In this document: positions 19,329 to 35,856 of the stretch, piece after piece
Position numbering within the stretch: position 1 is the stretch's first letter
Layout: every line of letters starts with the position of its first letter
From: Candidatus Omnitrophota bacterium
GTDB taxonomy: Bacteria > Omnitrophota > Gorgyraeia > 2-01-FULL-45-10
DNA length: 64,000 nt
Reading direction: 5' to 3'
Assembly (NCBI GenBank): GCA_026387175.1
Contig: JAPLME010000004.1
Coordinates: forward strand, 447 to 64,446
Made by a program: the position numbers and the translations under genes
Notes under the pieces: generated by a model
What the model was told of the DNA's origin: nothing
The model's input: only the letters and a program-made list of their open reading frames with translations
Database searches by the model: none

Positions 19329-21062
19329 ATGACGCCCGGACTAAAAGAGAAACTTACAAAGATCCTGATAGATAAGAACCTCATAAAAGAGGATGACCTT
19401 CAGAAGGCCCTCGCGCTGCAGAAGGAAAAGGGCGGATCTTTAAGCGACGTGCTGATAGCCCTCAAGCTGATATCGAAGAATGACCTGATGATGGTAATCA
19501 GCGAGCATCTGGGTATCCCGCCCATAAATCTGAGCCGTTTTAAGATAGATCCCGCAGTTCTTAAACTTGTTTCCAGAAAAACCGCAAAGCATTATAAGAT
19601 AATGCCGATCGCTAAGATGGGTAATGTGCTGACGCTTGCTATAGCGGACCCTCTTAATATATTTGCCATCGATGATATAAAAGCCCTTACAGGGTTTAAG
19701 ATAGCCCCTATAGTTACTACCGAAAACGATATAAATTACGCTATAGGCCACTATTATGAGGAAGATACCTATGCCGCTATAGACAAGATAGTCACCGGTA
19801 TAAAAGGCGCTGATGGGGACGTGAAATTCATGGATGGCGCCGGCTCAGACGTCGGTGTGGAAGACATGACGGAGATCGCGCAGGAAGTTCCTGTAGTGAA
19901 GATAACGAATATGCTTGTCGCCGAGGGTCTAAAGATGCGCGCCAGCGATATACTTATCGAGCCGATGGAAAGAGAGCTGCGTGTCAGGTACAGGGTCGAC
20001 GGCATTTTGCAGGAGGGGCGAAGGCCCCCGAAGGTATTGCATAGCTCTATCGTGTCCAGGCTAAAGATTATATCGGATCTTGATATCGCGGAGCACCGCT
20101 TGCCCCAAGACGGCAGGTTTAAGATTAAGGTGTCCGGAAGGGAGGTCGACTTCAGGATATCGATCCTGCCATCGCGTATGGGAGAGAAGGTCGCGATCAG
20201 GATACTGGATAAGGCTCAGGCTACACTTGATATAAATAAACTTGGGATCGACCCGATATCCCTCGACAAGATAAAGAAATCAGCCGAGAGGCCGCATGGC
20301 ATGATACTCGTCTGTGGTCCGACGGGATGCGGAAAAACCACAACCCTCTATTCGATACTGCAGCTTATAAATTATCCGACGGACAACATAGTGACTGTCG
20401 AGGACCCGGTAGAGTATCTCATAGAAGGCATAAGCCAGGTGACCGCGCGGCCTGAAATAGGCCTCACCTTCGCCGCCGCGCTTCGTTCGATATTGAGACA
20501 GGACCCCGACTCAATAATGATAGGCGAAATACGTGATTTCGAAACCGTAGACATAGCTATAAAAGCGGCCCTTACGGGGCACCTCGTCTTAAGCACGCTG
20601 CATACGACGACGGCAACGGGCTCAATCATAAGGCTTGTCAATATGGGCCTTGAACCGTTCCTGATAGCGTCATCCCTGATAATGGTGGCCGCGCAGCGGC
20701 TTGTCCGAAAGATATGCCCCGGCTGCAAAGAGTCTTACGATCTCGATAAGGATATTGCCAGAAAAATCAACCTGGCGCCGGCATCCGGTAAAATTACTCT
20801 GTATCGGGGCAAGGGATGCCCTGACTGTCTGGGGACGGGATACAAGGGCCGGACCGCGTTGATAGAGGTCCTTATGCTTACTCCGAAGATAAAAGAGCTG
20901 GTCCTGGCAGGCGAGCAGGAGCATATTATAAGGGAAGCGGCAAGGCGCGAGGGCATGAAGACGCTTCGCGAAAATGGAATACAGAACGTGCTCGACGGTA
21001 TAACTACCCTCGACGAGGTAGTGCGCGTTACTGTCGGCGATCAGGACATGGATACGGTATAA
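19329..21062 (+). CDS. pilB: Type IV pilus assembly ATPase PilB (copy 1) with an N-terminal MshEN-like domain
   Basis: N-terminal LTKILIDKNLIKEDDLQKALALQ motif, Walker A GPTGCGKTTT, tetracysteine CPGC...CPDC zinc motif, GspE-family boxes. Confidence 0.9.
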   Translation: MTPGLKEKLTKILIDKNLIKEDDLQKALALQKEKGGSLSDVLIALKLISKNDLMMVISEHLGIPPINLSRFKIDPAVLKLVSRKTAKHYKIMPIAKMGNVLTLAIADPLNIFAIDDIKALTGFKIAPIVTTENDINYAIGHYYEEDTYAAIDKIVTGIKGADGDVKFMDGAGSDVGVEDMTEIAQEVPVVKITNMLVAEGLKMRASDILIEPMERELRVRYRVDGILQEGRRPPKVLHSSIVSRLKIISDLDIAEHRLPQDGRFKIKVSGREVDFRISILPSRMGEKVAIRILDKAQATLDINKLGIDPISLDKIKKSAERPHGMILVCGPTGCGKTTTLYSILQLINYPTDNIVTVEDPVEYLIEGISQVTARPEIGLTFAAALRSILRQDPDSIMIGEIRDFETVDIAIKAALTGHLVLSTLHTTTATGSIIRLVNMGLEPFLIASSLIMVAAQRLVRKICPGCKESYDLDKDIARKINLAPASGKITLYRGKGCPDCLGTGYKGRTALIEVLMLTPKIKELVLAGEQEHIIREAARREGMKTLRENGIQNVLDGITTLDEVVRVTVGDQDMDTV

Positions 21063-21063
21063 A

Positions 21064-22800
21064 ATGAAAACAGCGGACCCGCTTAAAGAAAAACTGATAG
21101 ATATTTTGATAAACGGCAAACTCATAACCCAGGAGCAGCTGGCTACCGCGCTCGATGTGCAGAGGAATATAGGCGGATCTCTCGGGAAGATCCTCGTCTG
21201 GCAGGGTTATGTCTCTCAGAAAGATATCGTGATAGCGATGAGCCAGCAACTAAACATTCCGCCGATAAATCTGTCTAAATATCAGATAGACAAGACGTTG
21301 ATAGATATTATCCCTGAACGGATAGTAAAGCAGTACTTGATAATGCCGATATCCAAGATCGGCAATGTGCTCACCGTCGCTATGGTGGATCCGCTTAATA
21401 TATTTGCCATCGATGACATAAAGACGCTGACCAATTATCGGATCCAGCCGATACTGGCCACTGAGAATGATATAAAAGAGGCTATAGGCACCTACTATAG
21501 CAGCGCGGCCATTGAGGACATCTCTGATATGCTCGATCAGGCTGAGGCCTCGGATGTCTCGGAGGTGGAAAAAGCAGAAGGGGAAGAGGAGATAAATGTA
21601 AGCGAGGTGGCTGAAGAATCGAAGAAGGCGCCGATAGTTAAAATAGTCAATCTGATATTGAATGAAGCGATGAAGAAGCGTTCGAGCGATATCCATATCG
21701 AACCGCGCGAAAAAAACTTGATGGTGCGCTATAGAATTGACGGTAATCTGGAAGATGCTCTTACTCTCCCTAAGAAAAATCAGAATGCGGTCATTGCGAG
21801 ATTAAAGATCATATCCGGCCTGGACATCACCGAGACCAGAATTCCGCAGGACGGGCGGTTTAAAGTAAACTTCGAAGGAAGAGAGATAGATTTCAGAGTG
21901 TCGATCCTGCCGGTGGCGTTTGGCGGCAAGATAGTTTTACGCGCGCTTGACAAGTCGAACCTGAGCATAGGCCTGGATGAACTCGGATTTTTACCGGGCC
22001 CTTTAAGCACTTTTAAGGCCGCTCTCGCGAGGCCTTACGGACTGATCCTTGTGACCGGTCCTACGGGCAGCGGAAAGTCCACGACATTATACTCAATCAT
22101 AAATCAGATTAACACGCCGGACAAGAACATAATTACCCTGGAAGATCCGGTAGAATACGAGGTCGACGGTATTACGCAGATTCAGGCCAGACCCGACATA
22201 GGATTGACCTTCGCCACGGGGCTAAAGTCCGTCTTAAGGCAGAGCCCTGATATTGTGATGGTCGGAGAGATAAGGGATTTTGAGACTGCGGATATTTCCA
22301 TCAAGGCATCGCTGACCGGCCAGCTTATATTAAGTACTCTTCATACCAATGACGCAGCGGGCGCGATAACGAGGCTTATAGACATGGGAGTGGAACCATT
22401 TCTTGTGGCATCCAGTCTCGTCCTCTCTTCGGCGCAAAGGCTCATGAGAAAAATCTGTCCGTTCTGTACGGAGGAGGTAGATATACCGAAAAACATTCTG
22501 GAAAAAGCGGGGATAAGCCTTGATGAGATATCTAAAAAAGGCGTTAAACATTTTCATCAAGGTAAGGGTTGCCAGAGATGCAATAATACCGGATATCACG
22601 GCAGGTTCGGTATCCTTGAGGCGCTTTTGATCGATGATAATGTGCGGGATATGATAATGAAGAAGACCTCGAGCGGCGATATAAAAGATTATGCCATAAA
22701 AGAACAGCATATGCTGACATTGAGAGATAACGCGGTAGAGAATTTTATTAACGGGACCACTGCGCTTGAGGAGGTTTTAAGGGTGACCTCGGAGGACTAG
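21064..22800 (+). CDS. Second PilB/GspE-family assembly ATPase (tandem paralog) with an MshEN-like N-domain
   Basis: KEKLIDILINGKLITQEQLATALDVQ N-motif, Walker A GPTGSGKSTT, CPFC...CQRC tetracysteine motif. About 45 percent identical to copy 1 by eye. It has an acidic linker (EASDVSEVEKAEGEEE) that copy 1 lacks. Confidence 0.88.
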   Translation: MKTADPLKEKLIDILINGKLITQEQLATALDVQRNIGGSLGKILVWQGYVSQKDIVIAMSQQLNIPPINLSKYQIDKTLIDIIPERIVKQYLIMPISKIGNVLTVAMVDPLNIFAIDDIKTLTNYRIQPILATENDIKEAIGTYYSSAAIEDISDMLDQAEASDVSEVEKAEGEEEINVSEVAEESKKAPIVKIVNLILNEAMKKRSSDIHIEPREKNLMVRYRIDGNLEDALTLPKKNQNAVIARLKIISGLDITETRIPQDGRFKVNFEGREIDFRVSILPVAFGGKIVLRALDKSNLSIGLDELGFLPGPLSTFKAALARPYGLILVTGPTGSGKSTTLYSIINQINTPDKNIITLEDPVEYEVDGITQIQARPDIGLTFATGLKSVLRQSPDIVMVGEIRDFETADISIKASLTGQLILSTLHTNDAAGAITRLIDMGVEPFLVASSLVLSSAQRLMRKICPFCTEEVDIPKNILEKAGISLDEISKKGVKHFHQGKGCQRCNNTGYHGRFGILEALLIDDNVRDMIMKKTSSGDIKDYAIKEQHMLTLRDNAVENFINGTTALEEVLRVTSED

Positions 22801-32602: not shown

Positions 32603-33682
32603 ATGAGAATAGTAATAAAGATAGGGACCAAGGTCATAACGTCCAAGGACAGGGCTCTCGATAAAGAGCGCGTAAAGGATATGGTGTCTCAGATATCCGC
32701 TATACGTAAAAAAGGTATAGACGTGCTTATAGTGACGAGCGGCGCGATAGGTGCGGGAATGTGGCTCCTCGGTATCAAGAAGAGGCCGGCCGATCTTTCG
32801 GAACTGCAGGCCGTAGCCGCGATAGGGCAGAATTATCTGATGAAACTCTACGGTGAATATTTCAAGGCGCACGGTTCCCTCACAGGCCAGATACTGCTGA
32901 CGCAGGACGATTTCAATGACAGGAAAAGATATCTCAATATCAAACATACTATAGGCGCGCTTTTGAAATACAACGCGGTACCGATAATAAACGAGAACGA
33001 TACAGTAGCCACCGAAGAGATAAAATGCGGCGACAATGATCGTTTATCAAGCCTTGTAGCGGATATCGCAGGGTGCGATAAACTCATCCTTCTTACCGAC
33101 GTGGATGGCCTATTGGACGAGCATGGCTCTGTCATAGGCATGGTCGGCGAGGTGAATCAGAAGATACTGAAACTTGGCGGAAGGAGCGTTTGCGACCTGG
33201 GGACGGGCGGGATGGCGACTAAGCTTCAGTCCGCCAGGGCTGCCCAAAAAGCCGGCATCGAATGCATCATAGCTAACGGTAAGGCCAAGGACATACTTTC
33301 CAGGTTAGTTCTGGATGGTGATAGAGTCGGCACCAGGATCCTCAGCGCAAATAAAAAGTTCGACGCTAAGAAGCGCTGGATAGCTTACTCATCCATGTCC
33401 AGGGGGGCGATCAGGATCGATGACGGCGCCAGGACGGCGCTTATTCATCGCAATAAGAGTTTGCTGGCCTCCGGCATAGTCGAAGTCAGCGGCGATTTTG
33501 TGTCGGGCGACGTTATCAGCATATCGGATAAGGATGGGCATGAGTTCGCGAAGGGTCTTTCTAATTATTCGGCCGATGAGGTGGAGAAACTGAAAGGATT
33601 GAAATCCGTCGATTTCAAAAACGTGCTGGGATATAAAGCTAAGGACGAGATCGTCCATAAAGACAATCTGGTGATACTATGA
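32603..33682 (+). CDS. proB: Glutamate 5-kinase with a C-terminal PUA domain
   Basis: Amino-acid kinase fold VIKIGTKVIT, PUA domain at the C-terminus, proB-proA operon. Confidence 0.92.
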   Translation: MRIVIKIGTKVITSKDRALDKERVKDMVSQISAIRKKGIDVLIVTSGAIGAGMWLLGIKKRPADLSELQAVAAIGQNYLMKLYGEYFKAHGSLTGQILLTQDDFNDRKRYLNIKHTIGALLKYNAVPIINENDTVATEEIKCGDNDRLSSLVADIAGCDKLILLTDVDGLLDEHGSVIGMVGEVNQKILKLGGRSVCDLGTGGMATKLQSARAAQKAGIECIIANGKAKDILSRLVLDGDRVGTRILSANKKFDAKKRWIAYSSMSRGAIRIDDGARTALIHRNKSLLASGIVEVSGDFVSGDVISISDKDGHEFAKGLSNYSADEVEKLKGLKSVDFKNVLGYKAKDEIVHKDNLVIL

Positions 33683-34935
33683 TGTCCGCATATAATATAA
33701 AAAAAATATGCAGCGAAGTGAAGTCCGCATCGAGAGAGCTTGCTGTTACCGGTACGGAGGCCAAGAATAAGGCCCTCATCGCGATGAGTAAGGCCCTGAC
33801 GATAAGAGCTCCCTATATCATCAGGGAAAACAAAAAAGATCTTTCAACAGCCGTGCGAAAAGGGTTGTCGCCGGCGCTTATAGACCGGCTGCGGCTCACC
33901 GAATCAAGGATAGCCGGCATGGCGAAATCCCTGTCCGCGATCGCCCGGCTGAAAGACCCCATCGGCGAGGTCACCGAGACCAGGGGAAGGCCCAATGGTT
34001 TACTGATAAAAAAGATCAGGGTTCCTATTGGCGTGATACTGATAATCTACGAGGCGCGGCCCAACGTCACGAGCGACTGTATAGGGCTCTGTCTTAAATC
34101 TTCCAATGCTGTTATCTTGCGGGGCGGAAGCGAGGCGGTTAATTCCAATATAGCGATATTCAATGTCCTGAACGAAGTCGCGGTAGATGCCGGGTTACCG
34201 GACCATTCGATCGCGATAATTAAAGACACCGACAGGCGGGTCGTGGACGAGCTTCTTATACAAGAGGGCCTTATAGACCTTGTTATACCCAGAGGCGGCG
34301 AATCGCTTATACGCGAGGTCACCAGGAAGTCGAGGATACCCGTTATAAAACATTATAAGGGTGTCTGCCATACCTATGTCGATTCCGACGCGGACCTGAA
34401 GATGGCGGAAGATATCTGTTTTAATGCGAAAGTTCAGAGGCCCGGCGTATGCAACGCGATGGAGACGATGCTGGTCCACAGAAAAGTGGCGAAGAAGTTC
34501 CTTTTGCCTATGATAAAGCGTTTTATTGCCGCGGGCGTTGAGATCAGGGGATGTCCCGAGACGCGCCGCATTGTTCCTGGCTTAAAGAGAGCGGCGGAGA
34601 AGGACTGGTACACCGAGTATCTGGACCTTGTTTTATCCGTGAAGGTGGTGAAGGATGTCGATGAGGCTATCGCGCATATAATGAAATACGGCTCATACCA
34701 CTCGGACGCGATAGTGACTGAAAACAAGAAAAACGCCGGGAAATTCTTAAGCGAGGTCGATTCCGCATGTGTCTATCTGAACGCTTCGACAAGATTTACC
34801 GACGGCGGAGAGTTCGGCAAGGGCGCCGAGATGGGCATATCCACGGATAAGCTGCATGCGCGCGGCCCCATGGGCCTCGAGGAGCTGGCCTCATATAAGT
34901 ACGTGGTCTTCGGCACGGGACAGATCAGAAAATAG
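33679..34935 (+). CDS. proA: Gamma-glutamyl phosphate reductase
   Basis: Aldehyde dehydrogenase superfamily with catalytic Cys in NASTRFTDGGEFG context. Overlaps proB by 4 nt. Confidence 0.92.
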   Translation: MMSAYNIKKICSEVKSASRELAVTGTEAKNKALIAMSKALTIRAPYIIRENKKDLSTAVRKGLSPALIDRLRLTESRIAGMAKSLSAIARLKDPIGEVTETRGRPNGLLIKKIRVPIGVILIIYEARPNVTSDCIGLCLKSSNAVILRGGSEAVNSNIAIFNVLNEVAVDAGLPDHSIAIIKDTDRRVVDELLIQEGLIDLVIPRGGESLIREVTRKSRIPVIKHYKGVCHTYVDSDADLKMAEDICFNAKVQRPGVCNAMETMLVHRKVAKKFLLPMIKRFIAAGVEIRGCPETRRIVPGLKRAAEKDWYTEYLDLVLSVKVVKDVDEAIAHIMKYGSYHSDAIVTENKKNAGKFLSEVDSACVYLNASTRFTDGGEFGKGAEMGISTDKLHARGPMGLEELASYKYVVFGTGQIRK

Positions 34936-35038
34936 GCCGATGCCAGAGACATCGGCACTTAGCCTGCAATACGGCTGAATAAACTAGGCCGATATCAGAG
35001 ATATCGGCACTTAGCCTACAATGCGGCTGAATAAACTA
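34935..35038 (+). repeat. Tandem direct repeat, 2 x 52 bp, each unit containing a stem-loop
   Basis: Unit 1 ggccgatgccagagacatcggcacttagcctgcaatacggctgaataaacta and unit 2 ggccgatatcagagatatcggcacttagcctacaatgcggctgaataaacta. Differences in the hairpin stem are compensatory (gccgatg/catcggc versus gccgatat/atatcggc). Confidence 0.8.
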
Positions 35039-35049
35039 GGAGTTTAGGC

Positions 35050-35622
35050 ATGATGAGAATCGGGATACTCGGAGGGACATTTAATCCGATCCATATAGGG
35101 CATCTTATACTGGCTGATGAAGCTCTCTCAAAGTTAAAGCTGGATAAGGTGGTCTTCGTCCCGTCGTATATGCCGCCCCACAAGAGTGTCGAAACCGGCA
35201 TTAAGCCTCAGGACCGCCTCAAGATGGTCGAACTTGCGATAGGGGATAATCCGTCTTTCGAGGTCTCGAATTTTGAAATAGGCCGGAAGAAGACATCATA
35301 TTCCATTGATACCCTGAAAGAGTTTCGCGCCAAACATGGCGACGACGTCCAGCTATATTTCATAACGGGCTCGGACCTTCTAAAGGACCTGTTCTCATGG
35401 AAGAGCGTTAACGATATATTCAAGATATCTAAATTCATAGTCGCCAACCGCCCGGGATATCCCGTGAAGGATGTTCCTAAAGAGGTGGAGACCGTAGTGA
35501 TAACGCCCATCGAGGTGTCGTCCGAGGATATACGGAGGCGCCTCAAGGCCGGAAAGTCCATAAGATACCTTGTGCCGGAAAAGGTGCGCAGTTATATCAT
35601 TGAGCGGGGGTTGTATAAATAA
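35050..35622 (+). CDS. nadD: Nicotinate-nucleotide adenylyltransferase
   Basis: GILGGTFNPIHIGHL (HxGH motif), ISSTxIR-like C-terminal SSEDIRRR. Confidence 0.9.
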   Translation: MMRIGILGGTFNPIHIGHLILADEALSKLKLDKVVFVPSYMPPHKSVETGIKPQDRLKMVELAIGDNPSFEVSNFEIGRKKTSYSIDTLKEFRAKHGDDVQLYFITGSDLLKDLFSWKSVNDIFKISKFIVANRPGYPVKDVPKEVETVVITPIEVSSEDIRRRLKAGKSIRYLVPEKVRSYIIERGLYK

Positions 35623-35712: not shown

Positions 35713-35856
35713 ATGGCCGAGATAGGATATTGCGTAAAGTGTAAATCCAAGAAAGAGATGAAAGATACTCAACAAGTCACGATGAAGAATAAGAGAACAG
35801 CGATGAAGGGGAAGTGCACGACTTGTAATACCGGAATGTATAAGATAATGAAGTAA
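35713..35856 (+). CDS. 47-aa zinc-ribbon protein (MAEIGYCVKCKSKKEMKDTQQVTMKNKRTAMKGKCTTCNTGMYKIMK). It is absent from the ORF track because it is shorter than 60 aa.
   Basis: Own promoter, in-frame stop, two CxxC pairs 25 residues apart, lysine-rich. Followed by a strong terminator. Confidence 0.55.
   Translation: MAEIGYCVKCKSKKEMKDTQQVTMKNKRTAMKGKCTTCNTGMYKIMK

Follow-up and report, generated by a model that had tools for sequence, protein, structure and literature searches.

Between proA and nadD, in a 64-kb stretch of a Candidatus Omnitrophota contig (hereafter the window, meaning the whole stretch analysed), lie two head-to-tail copies of a 52-nt unit, each of which can fold into a GC-rich hairpin. 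The locus raises the question of whether such a pair is a local accident, a signal proper to one of the two flanking genes, or a member of a wider family with a more general role. Our analysis suggests the last of these: the pair belongs to a dispersed repeat family, most arrays of which directly adjoin the Shine-Dalgarno (SD) sequence of a co-oriented gene, and we put at about 0.55 the probability that the element acts in sense-strand RNA as a portable 5'-leader or intercistronic module affecting stability, processing or translation context.

In the output of Tandem Repeats Finder the pair appears as an array of period 52 at 34929-35040 (score 182, 2.2 copies, 90% matches), a second repeat search found it too, and the covariance model of the family described below (R1) recognizes both units with high significance (E ~1e-19 and ~1e-22 for units 1 and 2 respectively), confirming the 2 x 52-bp tandem repeat at 34935-35038 that an earlier note had reported from inspection of the letters. 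The units are contiguous and have no spacers, which sets the array apart from CRISPR, as that note had also held. Patterns for the hairpin and for the tail of the unit each match twice in the 64-kb window, against chance expectations of 0.02 and 0.00, and neither pattern search, repeat finder, nhmmer nor the unfiltered covariance model revealed another copy in it, the next-best score being at most 12.4 bits. The copies had been said to differ at six positions; in the register used for that count there are five differences (alignment columns 8, 9, 17, 35 and 41), six being reached only in the register of Tandem Repeats Finder (88% of 52), which takes in an A/C difference in the flank formed by the proA stop. 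The paired stem changes stand in part: G to A in column 8 and C to T in column 17 constitute a true compensatory pair in the first hairpin (hairpin 1), converting G-C to A-T, while C to T in column 9 replaces a C.A mismatch by U-A, so that the perfect stem of 7-8 bp once given for both copies is replaced by an interrupted stem in unit 1 and a longer perfect one in unit 2 (see the table). The remaining two differences fall in the loop of the second hairpin (hairpin 2) and are not compensatory. The predicted RNA fold of the array region is stabler than those of shuffled sequences on both strands (z = -4.1 and -3.9).

Taken by itself, such a pair could be a recent local slippage duplication unique to the locus, its paired stem changes being coincidental; there are only two copies in the 64-kb window, and the array is absent at this locus in every relative examined. 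This reading is refuted by the presence of the 52-nt unit at dozens of unrelated loci in other Omnitrophota genomes, by the recurrence of both window hairpin variants as subtypes and by covariation across the whole family. A scan of the GTDB species-representative genomes with the hairpin alone gave 64 matches, most of which are scattered singles in unrelated phyla and are taken to be chance background. Two Omnitrophota metagenome-assembled genomes stand out, with matches on 3 and 2 contigs and the whole 52-nt unit at unrelated loci; uniqueness of the unit, the finding that the earlier note said would refute its reading, is thus not borne out. The conserved tail (TCGGCACTTAGC-N12-18-ATAAACTWGG), used as the pattern for JGI metagenomes, recovered 110 stretches, and all of the 80 loci analysed hold profile-positive units. 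Many sites, in both orientations, can lie on a single long contig, the strict pattern alone finding at least 10 on one of 830 kb.

The resulting catalogue comprises 128 units in 89 arrays, of which 55 are single, 30 double, 3 triple and 1 quadruple, and the frequency of doublets indicates that the state seen in the window is a normal one for the family. R1, which was built from 104 distinct units and spans 52 positions, yields a bimodal score distribution, with true units at 52-81 bits and noise at 15.5 bits or below. The named members of the clusters containing proteins encoded beside arrays on different contigs all come from Candidatus Omnitrophota or Omnitrophica, and several family loci share gene order with the window, their proteins being 62-87% identical. 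The names of NadD homologues likewise point to Candidatus Omnitrophota for the window. As far as sampled, the family is restricted to this group. Viral contigs gave no matches, on which ground a phage origin was rejected. In Rfam the window region has only a sub-threshold relationship to P26 on the minus strand (21.4 bits against a gathering score of 36, E = 0.06), and in 12 family loci the element drew no Rfam match. Literature searches turned up no account of a repeat family of this sort in Omnitrophota, and it is apparently undescribed. One locus stands apart in its architecture: at L109:28-340, on the minus strand, at least 5 units are arranged in a higher-order repeat in which hairpin subtypes alternate, the contig ending inside the array.

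The consensus unit can be written GGCCUCGGUC-GGA-GACCUCGGC ACUUAGCC AACACCGU GGCUUAAUAAACUU, in which a GC-rich hairpin 1 of ~9 bp is followed by ACUUAGCC, a small hairpin 2 with a variable loop, and then AAUAAACUU. Across the 104 distinct units, six of the nine pairs of hairpin 1 show changes on both sides. Its inner three pairs, which the search pattern left free on both sides, switch between GC and UA (78/25), GC and AU (78/23), and UA and CG (87/14), with only 1-2 broken cells each. In total 77 cells are changed on both sides as against 22 in shuffles, none of 500 shuffles reaching the observed value, and the covariation score is 0.183 as against 0.097 in shuffles, a signal that is abolished by sliding the partners. 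Even rare variants are fully compensated (GCAUAGGUC/GACCUAUGC, GUCGAUAUC/GAUAUCGAC and GCCUAUAUC/GAUAUAGGC). Selection on structure, which had been proposed from the two window copies along with covariation as a check on it, is accordingly borne out by the family, though not by the comparison between those copies. Both window variants (GAUGYC/GACAUC and GAUAUC/GAUAUC) are recurrent family subtypes, the complete hairpin of unit 2 being found identically in nine units, at several other loci. The compensatory pair in the window may therefore reflect two pre-existing subtypes rather than compensation in place, and probably does. Hairpin 2 is short and mostly invariant, and hence uninformative for covariation; its 49 G.U pairs as against 6 A.C pairs, a signal coming mainly from two column pairs, favour folding of the sense strand.

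Hairpin 1 is strand-symmetric in this respect (6 G.U and 6 A.C), and this symmetry is one of the points that would fit a protein-binding site acting at the DNA level, be it a palindromic operator, a nucleoid-protein site or a UP-element-like module by promoters or gene starts. Some subtypes are perfect 9-3-9 palindromes (GCCGATATC-AGA-GATATCGGC), and in 6-7 arrays the AAACTTG of the last unit runs into a -35 hexamer. However, the sequence of the palindrome changes freely while its pairing is kept, which is the signature of a folded single strand and not of base-specific duplex recognition, and the majority subtype is an imperfect palindrome. About half of the arrays lie between co-oriented genes right after a stop codon, with no promoter, and the strict orientation lock to the downstream SD speaks against a symmetric operator. 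A protein-binding palindrome, which was among the roles first considered for this repeat, therefore appears improbable.

The arrays also hold a regular position relative to genes. The last unit adjoins GGAGG-N5-9-ATG of a co-oriented gene in ~90% of arrays, and in 73 of the 84 arrays with enough flank for the count a co-oriented long open reading frame (ORF) starts no more than 20 nt from the array end, mostly at 9-12 nt, as compared with 19% at random positions, which serve as a crude control. Downstream positions +3 to +5, which are unconstrained by the search pattern, read A/G-G-G and complete the GGAGG, and the same SD adjacency is seen in five of the six loci found by the hairpin alone. 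On the other side, 39 of 82 arrays follow a co-oriented stop codon, and in 17 of the 39 the gap is at most 1 nt, the window array being one such case; in the upstream flank A predominates without being fixed (55-69% at -6 to -1 across the family). The remaining arrays are mostly followed by an SD and ATG opening a short ORF, or by a sigma-70-type promoter whose -35 box starts in the terminal CTTG. Where no co-oriented gene precedes the array (42 arrays), a strict promoter match with its -10 box ending 5-22 nt before the first hairpin was found in 9, as against 2 of 72 control segments. At rplU the promoter TTGAC(C/G)-17-TATA(T/G)T is conserved in the window and at two family loci, L117 and L164; in the latter two the space from the -10 box to the SD holds a doublet, whereas the rplU leader of the window is without the element. 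Which junction of this operon is occupied thus varies with the lineage, and at rplU the element forms part of the transcribed leader. Just one pair of inverted arrays was seen, at L092:249-1089, where a single unit (minus strand, 249-300) and a doublet (plus strand, 986-1089) flank a minus-strand RNase P RNA gene (RF00010, 174.7 bits, 426-974).

The genes downstream of arrays represent 89 Pfam families across 65 proteins of unrelated housekeeping functions, among them EF-Tu, MreB, GAPDH, IlvC, PanB, HisB, FolD, SSB, L21, L35 and pilins. This functional spread excludes a riboswitch or a pathway-specific signal. In the window alone, the two similar hairpin domains directly upstream of an NAD-biosynthesis gene might have suggested a tandem-aptamer riboswitch or another nadD/NAD-specific regulator, the NAD+-I (nadA) riboswitch having two similar tandem domains. 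Nevertheless, such a regulator is hardly credible for a family which precedes 89 unrelated Pfam families, for which no Rfam model reaches threshold beyond the sub-threshold minus-strand match to P26 mentioned above, and which is absent upstream of nadD in six relatives. A processing or stability signal, another of the roles first suggested, is still the best functional guess, but it would serve dozens of unrelated genes and not proBA or nadD in particular.

The history of the junction itself can be followed in six relatives chosen at graded NadD identity. Their proA-nadD spacers measure 18 nt (L010, NadD 95% identical), 9 nt (L199, 92%), 4 nt (L205, 87%), 103 nt of unrelated AT-rich sequence (L015, 85%), 10 nt (L204, 84%) and 1 nt (L019, 82%), and in all six the covariance model found no repeat unit at this junction. 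The closest relative, L010, reads ...aggaaaTAG/aagtttAGGAGcgtgataATG where the window reads ...agaaaaTAG/[2 x 52]/gagtttaggcATGATG, a comparison which shows the 104 bp to be an insertion exactly after the proA stop; the window array is a recent, derived and lineage-specific gain. In L199 (AGGAGGtag), L205 (GGGGAGttga) and L204 (AAGGAGAtaa) the SD of nadD lies within the last proA codons, a translational-coupling layout, and in L010 it is a separate AGGAG inside the 18-nt spacer. The window retains the L010-type SD in degraded form (tttAGGc), leaving the AGGAG at the junction of unit 2 and its flank as the one good SD, and the start ATG of nadD lies 3 nt upstream of that of the relatives (MMRI... 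as against MRI...). The array has replaced a short junction, with its SD in the spacer or at the proA end, by an independent SD supplied by the element. The absence of the array in close relatives, its adjoining and supplying the nadD SD, and the normality of doublets had all been missed by the earlier note. Unrelated AT-rich palindromic inserts were also seen at proA-nadD junctions in L015:2898-3000 (103 nt) and in L117 at ~1992-2146 on the minus strand (~155 nt), so that the junction looks like a hotspot for small insertions, possibly involving a second repeat family.

The features of the locus are collected below. The gene order is obg, proB, proA, repeat, nadD, DUF5679, rsfS, argS; the DUF5679 ORF between nadD and rsfS (47 aa, window 35713-35856) is conserved in all relatives examined. 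Elsewhere in the window a 172-nt direct repeat with 73% identity (19586-19757 and 21327-21498, copies 1.7 kb apart) is probably paralogous coding sequence.

Table. Features of the proA-nadD region, in window coordinates
Feature	Position	Strand	Basis or remark
proA, gamma-glutamyl phosphate reductase	33679..34935	+	ORF list, Pfam Aldedh, synteny with relatives
proA stop TAG	34933-34935	+	directly adjoins unit 1
Repeat unit 1, 52 nt	34935..34986	+	covariance model R1 64.3 bits, nhmmer profile, Tandem Repeats Finder
Unit 1 hairpin 1, GCCGAUGCC-AGA-GACAUCGGC, 7 bp + C.A mismatch + closing C-G	34936..34956	+	sequence, fold, family covariation
Unit 1 hairpin 2 (putative), UUAGCC-loop-GGCUGA, short stem with G.U pair, variable loop	34959..34978	+	alignment columns 26-48
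Repeat unit 2, 52 nt	34987..35038	+	covariance model R1 72 bits
Unit 2 hairpin 1, GCCGAUAUC-AGA-GAUAUCGGC, perfect 9-bp stem	34988..35008	+	sequence, fold
Unit 2 hairpin 2 (putative)	35011..35030	+	alignment
A/U-rich 3' tail of last unit, AAUAAACUA, leading into SD	35030..35038	+	near-invariant family columns 49-56
SD AGGAG for nadD, at unit 2/flank junction, 7 nt before ATG	35038..35042	+	sequence; family-wide GGAGG consensus starts at +1
nadD, nicotinate-nucleotide adenylyltransferase	35050..35622	+	ORF list, Pfam CTP_transf_like, homologue names, junction comparison

The array also leaves a mark on assemblies of short-read data. In Logan contigs (k=31) from at least 7 samples, all those with an exact ProA match stop at 34963 and all those with an exact NadD match begin at 34993. 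No 31-mer is common to the two window copies, and hence those samples must contain further units of near-identical sequence or variants in copy number; the breaks within the array may come from k-mers shared with other family copies, from copy-number variants, or from both.

A role as a portable leader or intercistronic module in sense-strand RNA could be served by the parts of the unit in the following manner. Hairpin 1 would place a stable fold at the very start of transcripts, whether primary or processed, or close to it, and likewise at the 3' end of the upstream cistron; it might protect from exonucleases or 5'-end-dependent decay, or be bound by a common factor. The single-stranded AAUAAACUU tail would then present the SD. 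Gains and losses of units within an array may come about by slippage or unequal exchange; hairpin 1, for its part, seems to undergo replacement or conversion from one copy to another.

Several observations weigh against this interpretation. What would place the role at the RNA level is position and strand bias only. The covariation counts ignore phylogeny, and part of the unit was fixed by the pattern used for the metagenome search. In the majority hairpin subtype (66 of 104 units), pairs 5-20 and 6-19 set UC opposite UC, forming a symmetric internal loop, and for this subtype ViennaRNA prefers another, nested fold. Such a nested three-helix fold was itself rejected, having no covariation support (0.089 as against 0.082) and pairs that break in 23-56 of the 104 units. 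Not all arrays adjoin an SD: in 6-7 of them (L034, L092, L129, L142 and L168 among these) the AAACTTG runs into TTGACA or TTGCAA, followed after 17 nt by TATAAT or a near match. Two further arrays are reverse-oriented (L102:2190-2241 and L149:3694-3744), with no SD after the 3' end of the unit; its 5' end instead adjoins the region where a gene on the other strand begins. Intercistronic sites hold no excess of doublets (38% as against 35%, p = 0.82), and the notion of doublets as an intercistronic processing device was rejected on this account. The predicted accessibility of the region from SD to start is 0.48 with the element, as compared with 0.43 for shuffled elements (p = 1.6e-4) and 0.59 without the element; this slight gain over shuffled elements, being worse than no element at all, led us to reject the idea that the element keeps the SD open. 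Finally, two orthologous pairs show no excess of conservation in the unit over four-fold sites.

The UC/UC loop has the further effect that both hairpin arms contain the direct repeat CCUCGG, while the minority subtypes are perfectly paired. Other candidate functions of parts of the unit were set aside. A CsrA-type GGA loop was dropped as the loop varies (GGA, AGA, UAAA, AGG, GGU, GCCA); for anti-SD pairing by CCUC the predicted SD partners are diffuse, with no position above ~0.1; and a promoter inside the unit was discounted by inspection, TTAGCC-15 nt-TAAACT being a poor match whose start would land on the SD.

If the hairpins were instead read on the minus strand, where a stretch rich in U (complementary to AAUAAACUU or to the A-rich flank) comes after each hairpin 1, they could act as intrinsic terminators of antisense transcription. 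A terminator scan does flag both window hairpins on the minus strand, as 9-bp stems followed by CTATTTTCTG and CTAGTTTATT, and the A-rich upstream flank of the family would supply the uridines. However, the tails start with C(A/U)AG and are interrupted, making poor U-tracts, and no gene converges on the site in the window. The regularity of the family is its adjacency to an SD and start codon on the sense strand, the strand also singled out by the G.U excess of hairpin 2. This explanation thus seems very unlikely, more so than a DNA-level protein-binding site.

The behaviour of the arrays over time bears on the main rival, which holds that the element is a selfish, non-autonomous mobile element of the REP-, MITE- or PATE-like kind with no host function. 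Its hairpin would be recognized by a transposase or nuclease in single-stranded DNA, and the SD adjacency and orientation would result from an insertion target (for instance the GGAGG complement or an A-rich/GG junction) together with purifying selection against harmful insertions. Orthologous loci differ in copy number, with 1 as against 2 in L132/L160, 2 as against 3 in L122/L137, and 1 as against at least 4 in another case, and also in hairpin subtype (L089, L101, L125). Adjacent units have tails with 1.6 differences as compared with 4.2 between arrays, whereas their hairpins 1 show 3.65 differences as compared with 4.40 between unrelated arrays, and in 8 of 37 adjacent pairs hairpin 1 has at least 4 differences while the tail has at most 1. 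Simple duplication followed by drift does not predict this pattern, for which templated replacement of hairpin 1 or selection for non-identical neighbours are possible causes.

For a mobile element these are congenial facts: variable copy number at orthologous loci, presence and absence differing between close relatives, the same operon occupied at different junctions across lineages, and neighbouring units with a common tail but first hairpins almost as different as those of unrelated arrays, a pattern suggestive of templated replacement. To these may be added the sharp family boundary with its highly similar members, the A-rich upstream and GGAGG downstream flanks, and a non-complementary stem middle that recalls REP architecture (PMC2817692). 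The pneumococcal BOX, RUP and SPRITE repeats, moreover, have been judged parasitic though co-transcribed with genes (PMC3049150). On the other hand, dead insertions would decay, yet resident copies are kept well beyond four-fold saturation in several orthologous groups: in the L112/L143/L161 orthologues the unit is 88-92% identical where four-fold sites are at 26%, and for pooled orthologous copies the values are 85% for the unit and 65% for four-fold sites. Conservation beyond synonymous saturation argues that resident copies are maintained by selection or conversion and are not decaying neutrally. Furthermore, neither terminal inverted repeats nor a target-site duplication was seen with the element, which also lacks a GTAG or CGTC tag and has its units running head-to-tail, not alternating. 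The sense-strand G.U excess in hairpin 2 is unexpected for a purely DNA-level signal. Viral contigs lack matches, and no transposase turned up, though no systematic search for one was made. We consider a purely selfish nature distinctly less probable than a role in sense-strand RNA but a serious contender; the two are not mutually exclusive.

In kind, the family belongs with the short interspersed intergenic repeats, and it is unusual among them for its strict lock to the ribosome-binding sites of many core genes. Supply et al. are said to have described MIRU units of ~50 nt with variable-number tandem repeat behaviour. MIRUs lie between genes and are co-oriented with them, appear mobile, and insert at gene starts without loss of downstream expression, which is secured by an ORF within them whose translation is coupled to that of the next gene (PMC12548453). 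The Omnitrophota family resembles them in its ~50-nt units, its many loci, its variable-number head-to-tail arrays, its placement between co-oriented genes and, presumably, in leaving the expression of the next gene intact. It differs in that the unit has no consistent ORF and adjoins or supplies the SD instead: no coupled ORF of the MIRU type was found in it, 47 of the 104 units having stops in all three frames, an ATG occurring in 43 of the 104, and 52 nt not being a multiple of 3. The covarying GC-rich hairpin, the different phylum and the unrelated sequence are further differences, MIRUs being compared here by their description.

REPs are 20-40 bp palindromes with an unpaired GTAG (GT[A/G]G) or CGTC tag that often come in pairs of opposite or alternating orientation (PMC3733652, PMC2817692); most lie downstream of coding sequence, where the neighbouring ORFs are unidirectional or convergent (PMC3733652). 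They exceed 100 copies per genome, with the cognate RAYT gene flanked by two inverted REPs, and their palindromy is kept by complementary changes in a stem with a non-complementary middle (PMC2817692); they have also been proposed as RNA elements affecting mRNA stability (PMC3733652). For the Omnitrophota family the copy-number observations are the sites on the 830-kb contig cited above and the one array in the 64-kb window. With REPs and BIMEs the family shares small, GC-rich, intergenic, multi-copy hairpins, compensatory changes and the non-complementary stem middle, as well as occurrence between unidirectional ORFs (39 of 82 arrays). It departs from them in its 52-nt unit, of which the first 21-23 nt are palindromic and the other 30 nt form a conserved non-palindromic tail; in having no GTAG or CGTC on either strand of the consensus, the flanks reading ...CTTG/CTAG before a G and ACTTAG, with the complement CTAAGT; in the head-to-tail arrangement on one strand of all 34 multi-unit arrays (34/34); and in the location of its arrays directly upstream of the SD and start. 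The suggestion of a REP-like element is hence apt in the sense of a dispersed intergenic hairpin repeat, while REPs in the formal sense are of another size, tag, orientation and location.

BOX elements (boxA-boxB(n)-boxC) contain an internal module that is tandemly repeated in variable copy number. In the pneumococcus they are interspersed, have extensive secondary structure, are co-transcribed and likely affect expression, and have been judged parasitic (PMC3049150). Interspersed intergenic location, secondary structure and co-transcription are points of likeness; BOX, however, is a composite of three module types, has no reported SD lock, and is unrelated in sequence and taxon. MITEs differ in that the ends of the Omnitrophota unit (GGCC... 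and ...AAACTT) are not inverted repeats and its flanks have no duplicated target; the TAG in the window was rejected as a target-site duplication, CTAGG being a recurrent variant of the unit end (AAACTWGG). A purely functional analogy is offered by the 5' untranslated region of E. coli ompA, reportedly characterized as a stabilizer leader by Emory, Bouvet and Belasco in 1992, with which the element has in common a 5'-proximal stem-loop, a second stem-loop and a single-stranded A/U-rich segment at the ribosome-binding site. The ompA leader is a single-locus feature, whereas the Omnitrophota element is dispersed, tandemly amplifying and known from sequence.

Bacteria commonly carry short interspersed repeats, but families locked in orientation and position to the ribosome-binding sites of many unrelated housekeeping genes are rare, MIRUs, with their different device, being the nearest. 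R1 provides a searchable RNA/DNA motif for an uncultivated phylum. The family would also explain recurrent assembly breaks at such loci in short-read metagenomes, and the proA-nadD locus is a junction at which translational coupling gave way to an SD supplied by the element. Even if purely selfish, the family would be a clear case of a repeat whose niche of insertion or survival lies exactly at the SD. A more far-reaching and decidedly speculative proposal, which we hold to be unlikely though worth stating, is that a portable leader maintained by the host places dozens of housekeeping genes (EF-Tu, rplU, rpmI, gap, ssb, mreB, pilin and biosynthetic genes) under one post-transcriptional control through a trans-acting factor, an RNA-binding protein or RNase, that recognizes hairpin 1, with array length and hairpin subtype tuning the output. 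The natural compensatory variants could be used to ask whether the repeat family is such a shared leader co-regulating core genes; if it is, it would represent a bacterial regulon wired by a repeat element and not by the independent evolution of sites.

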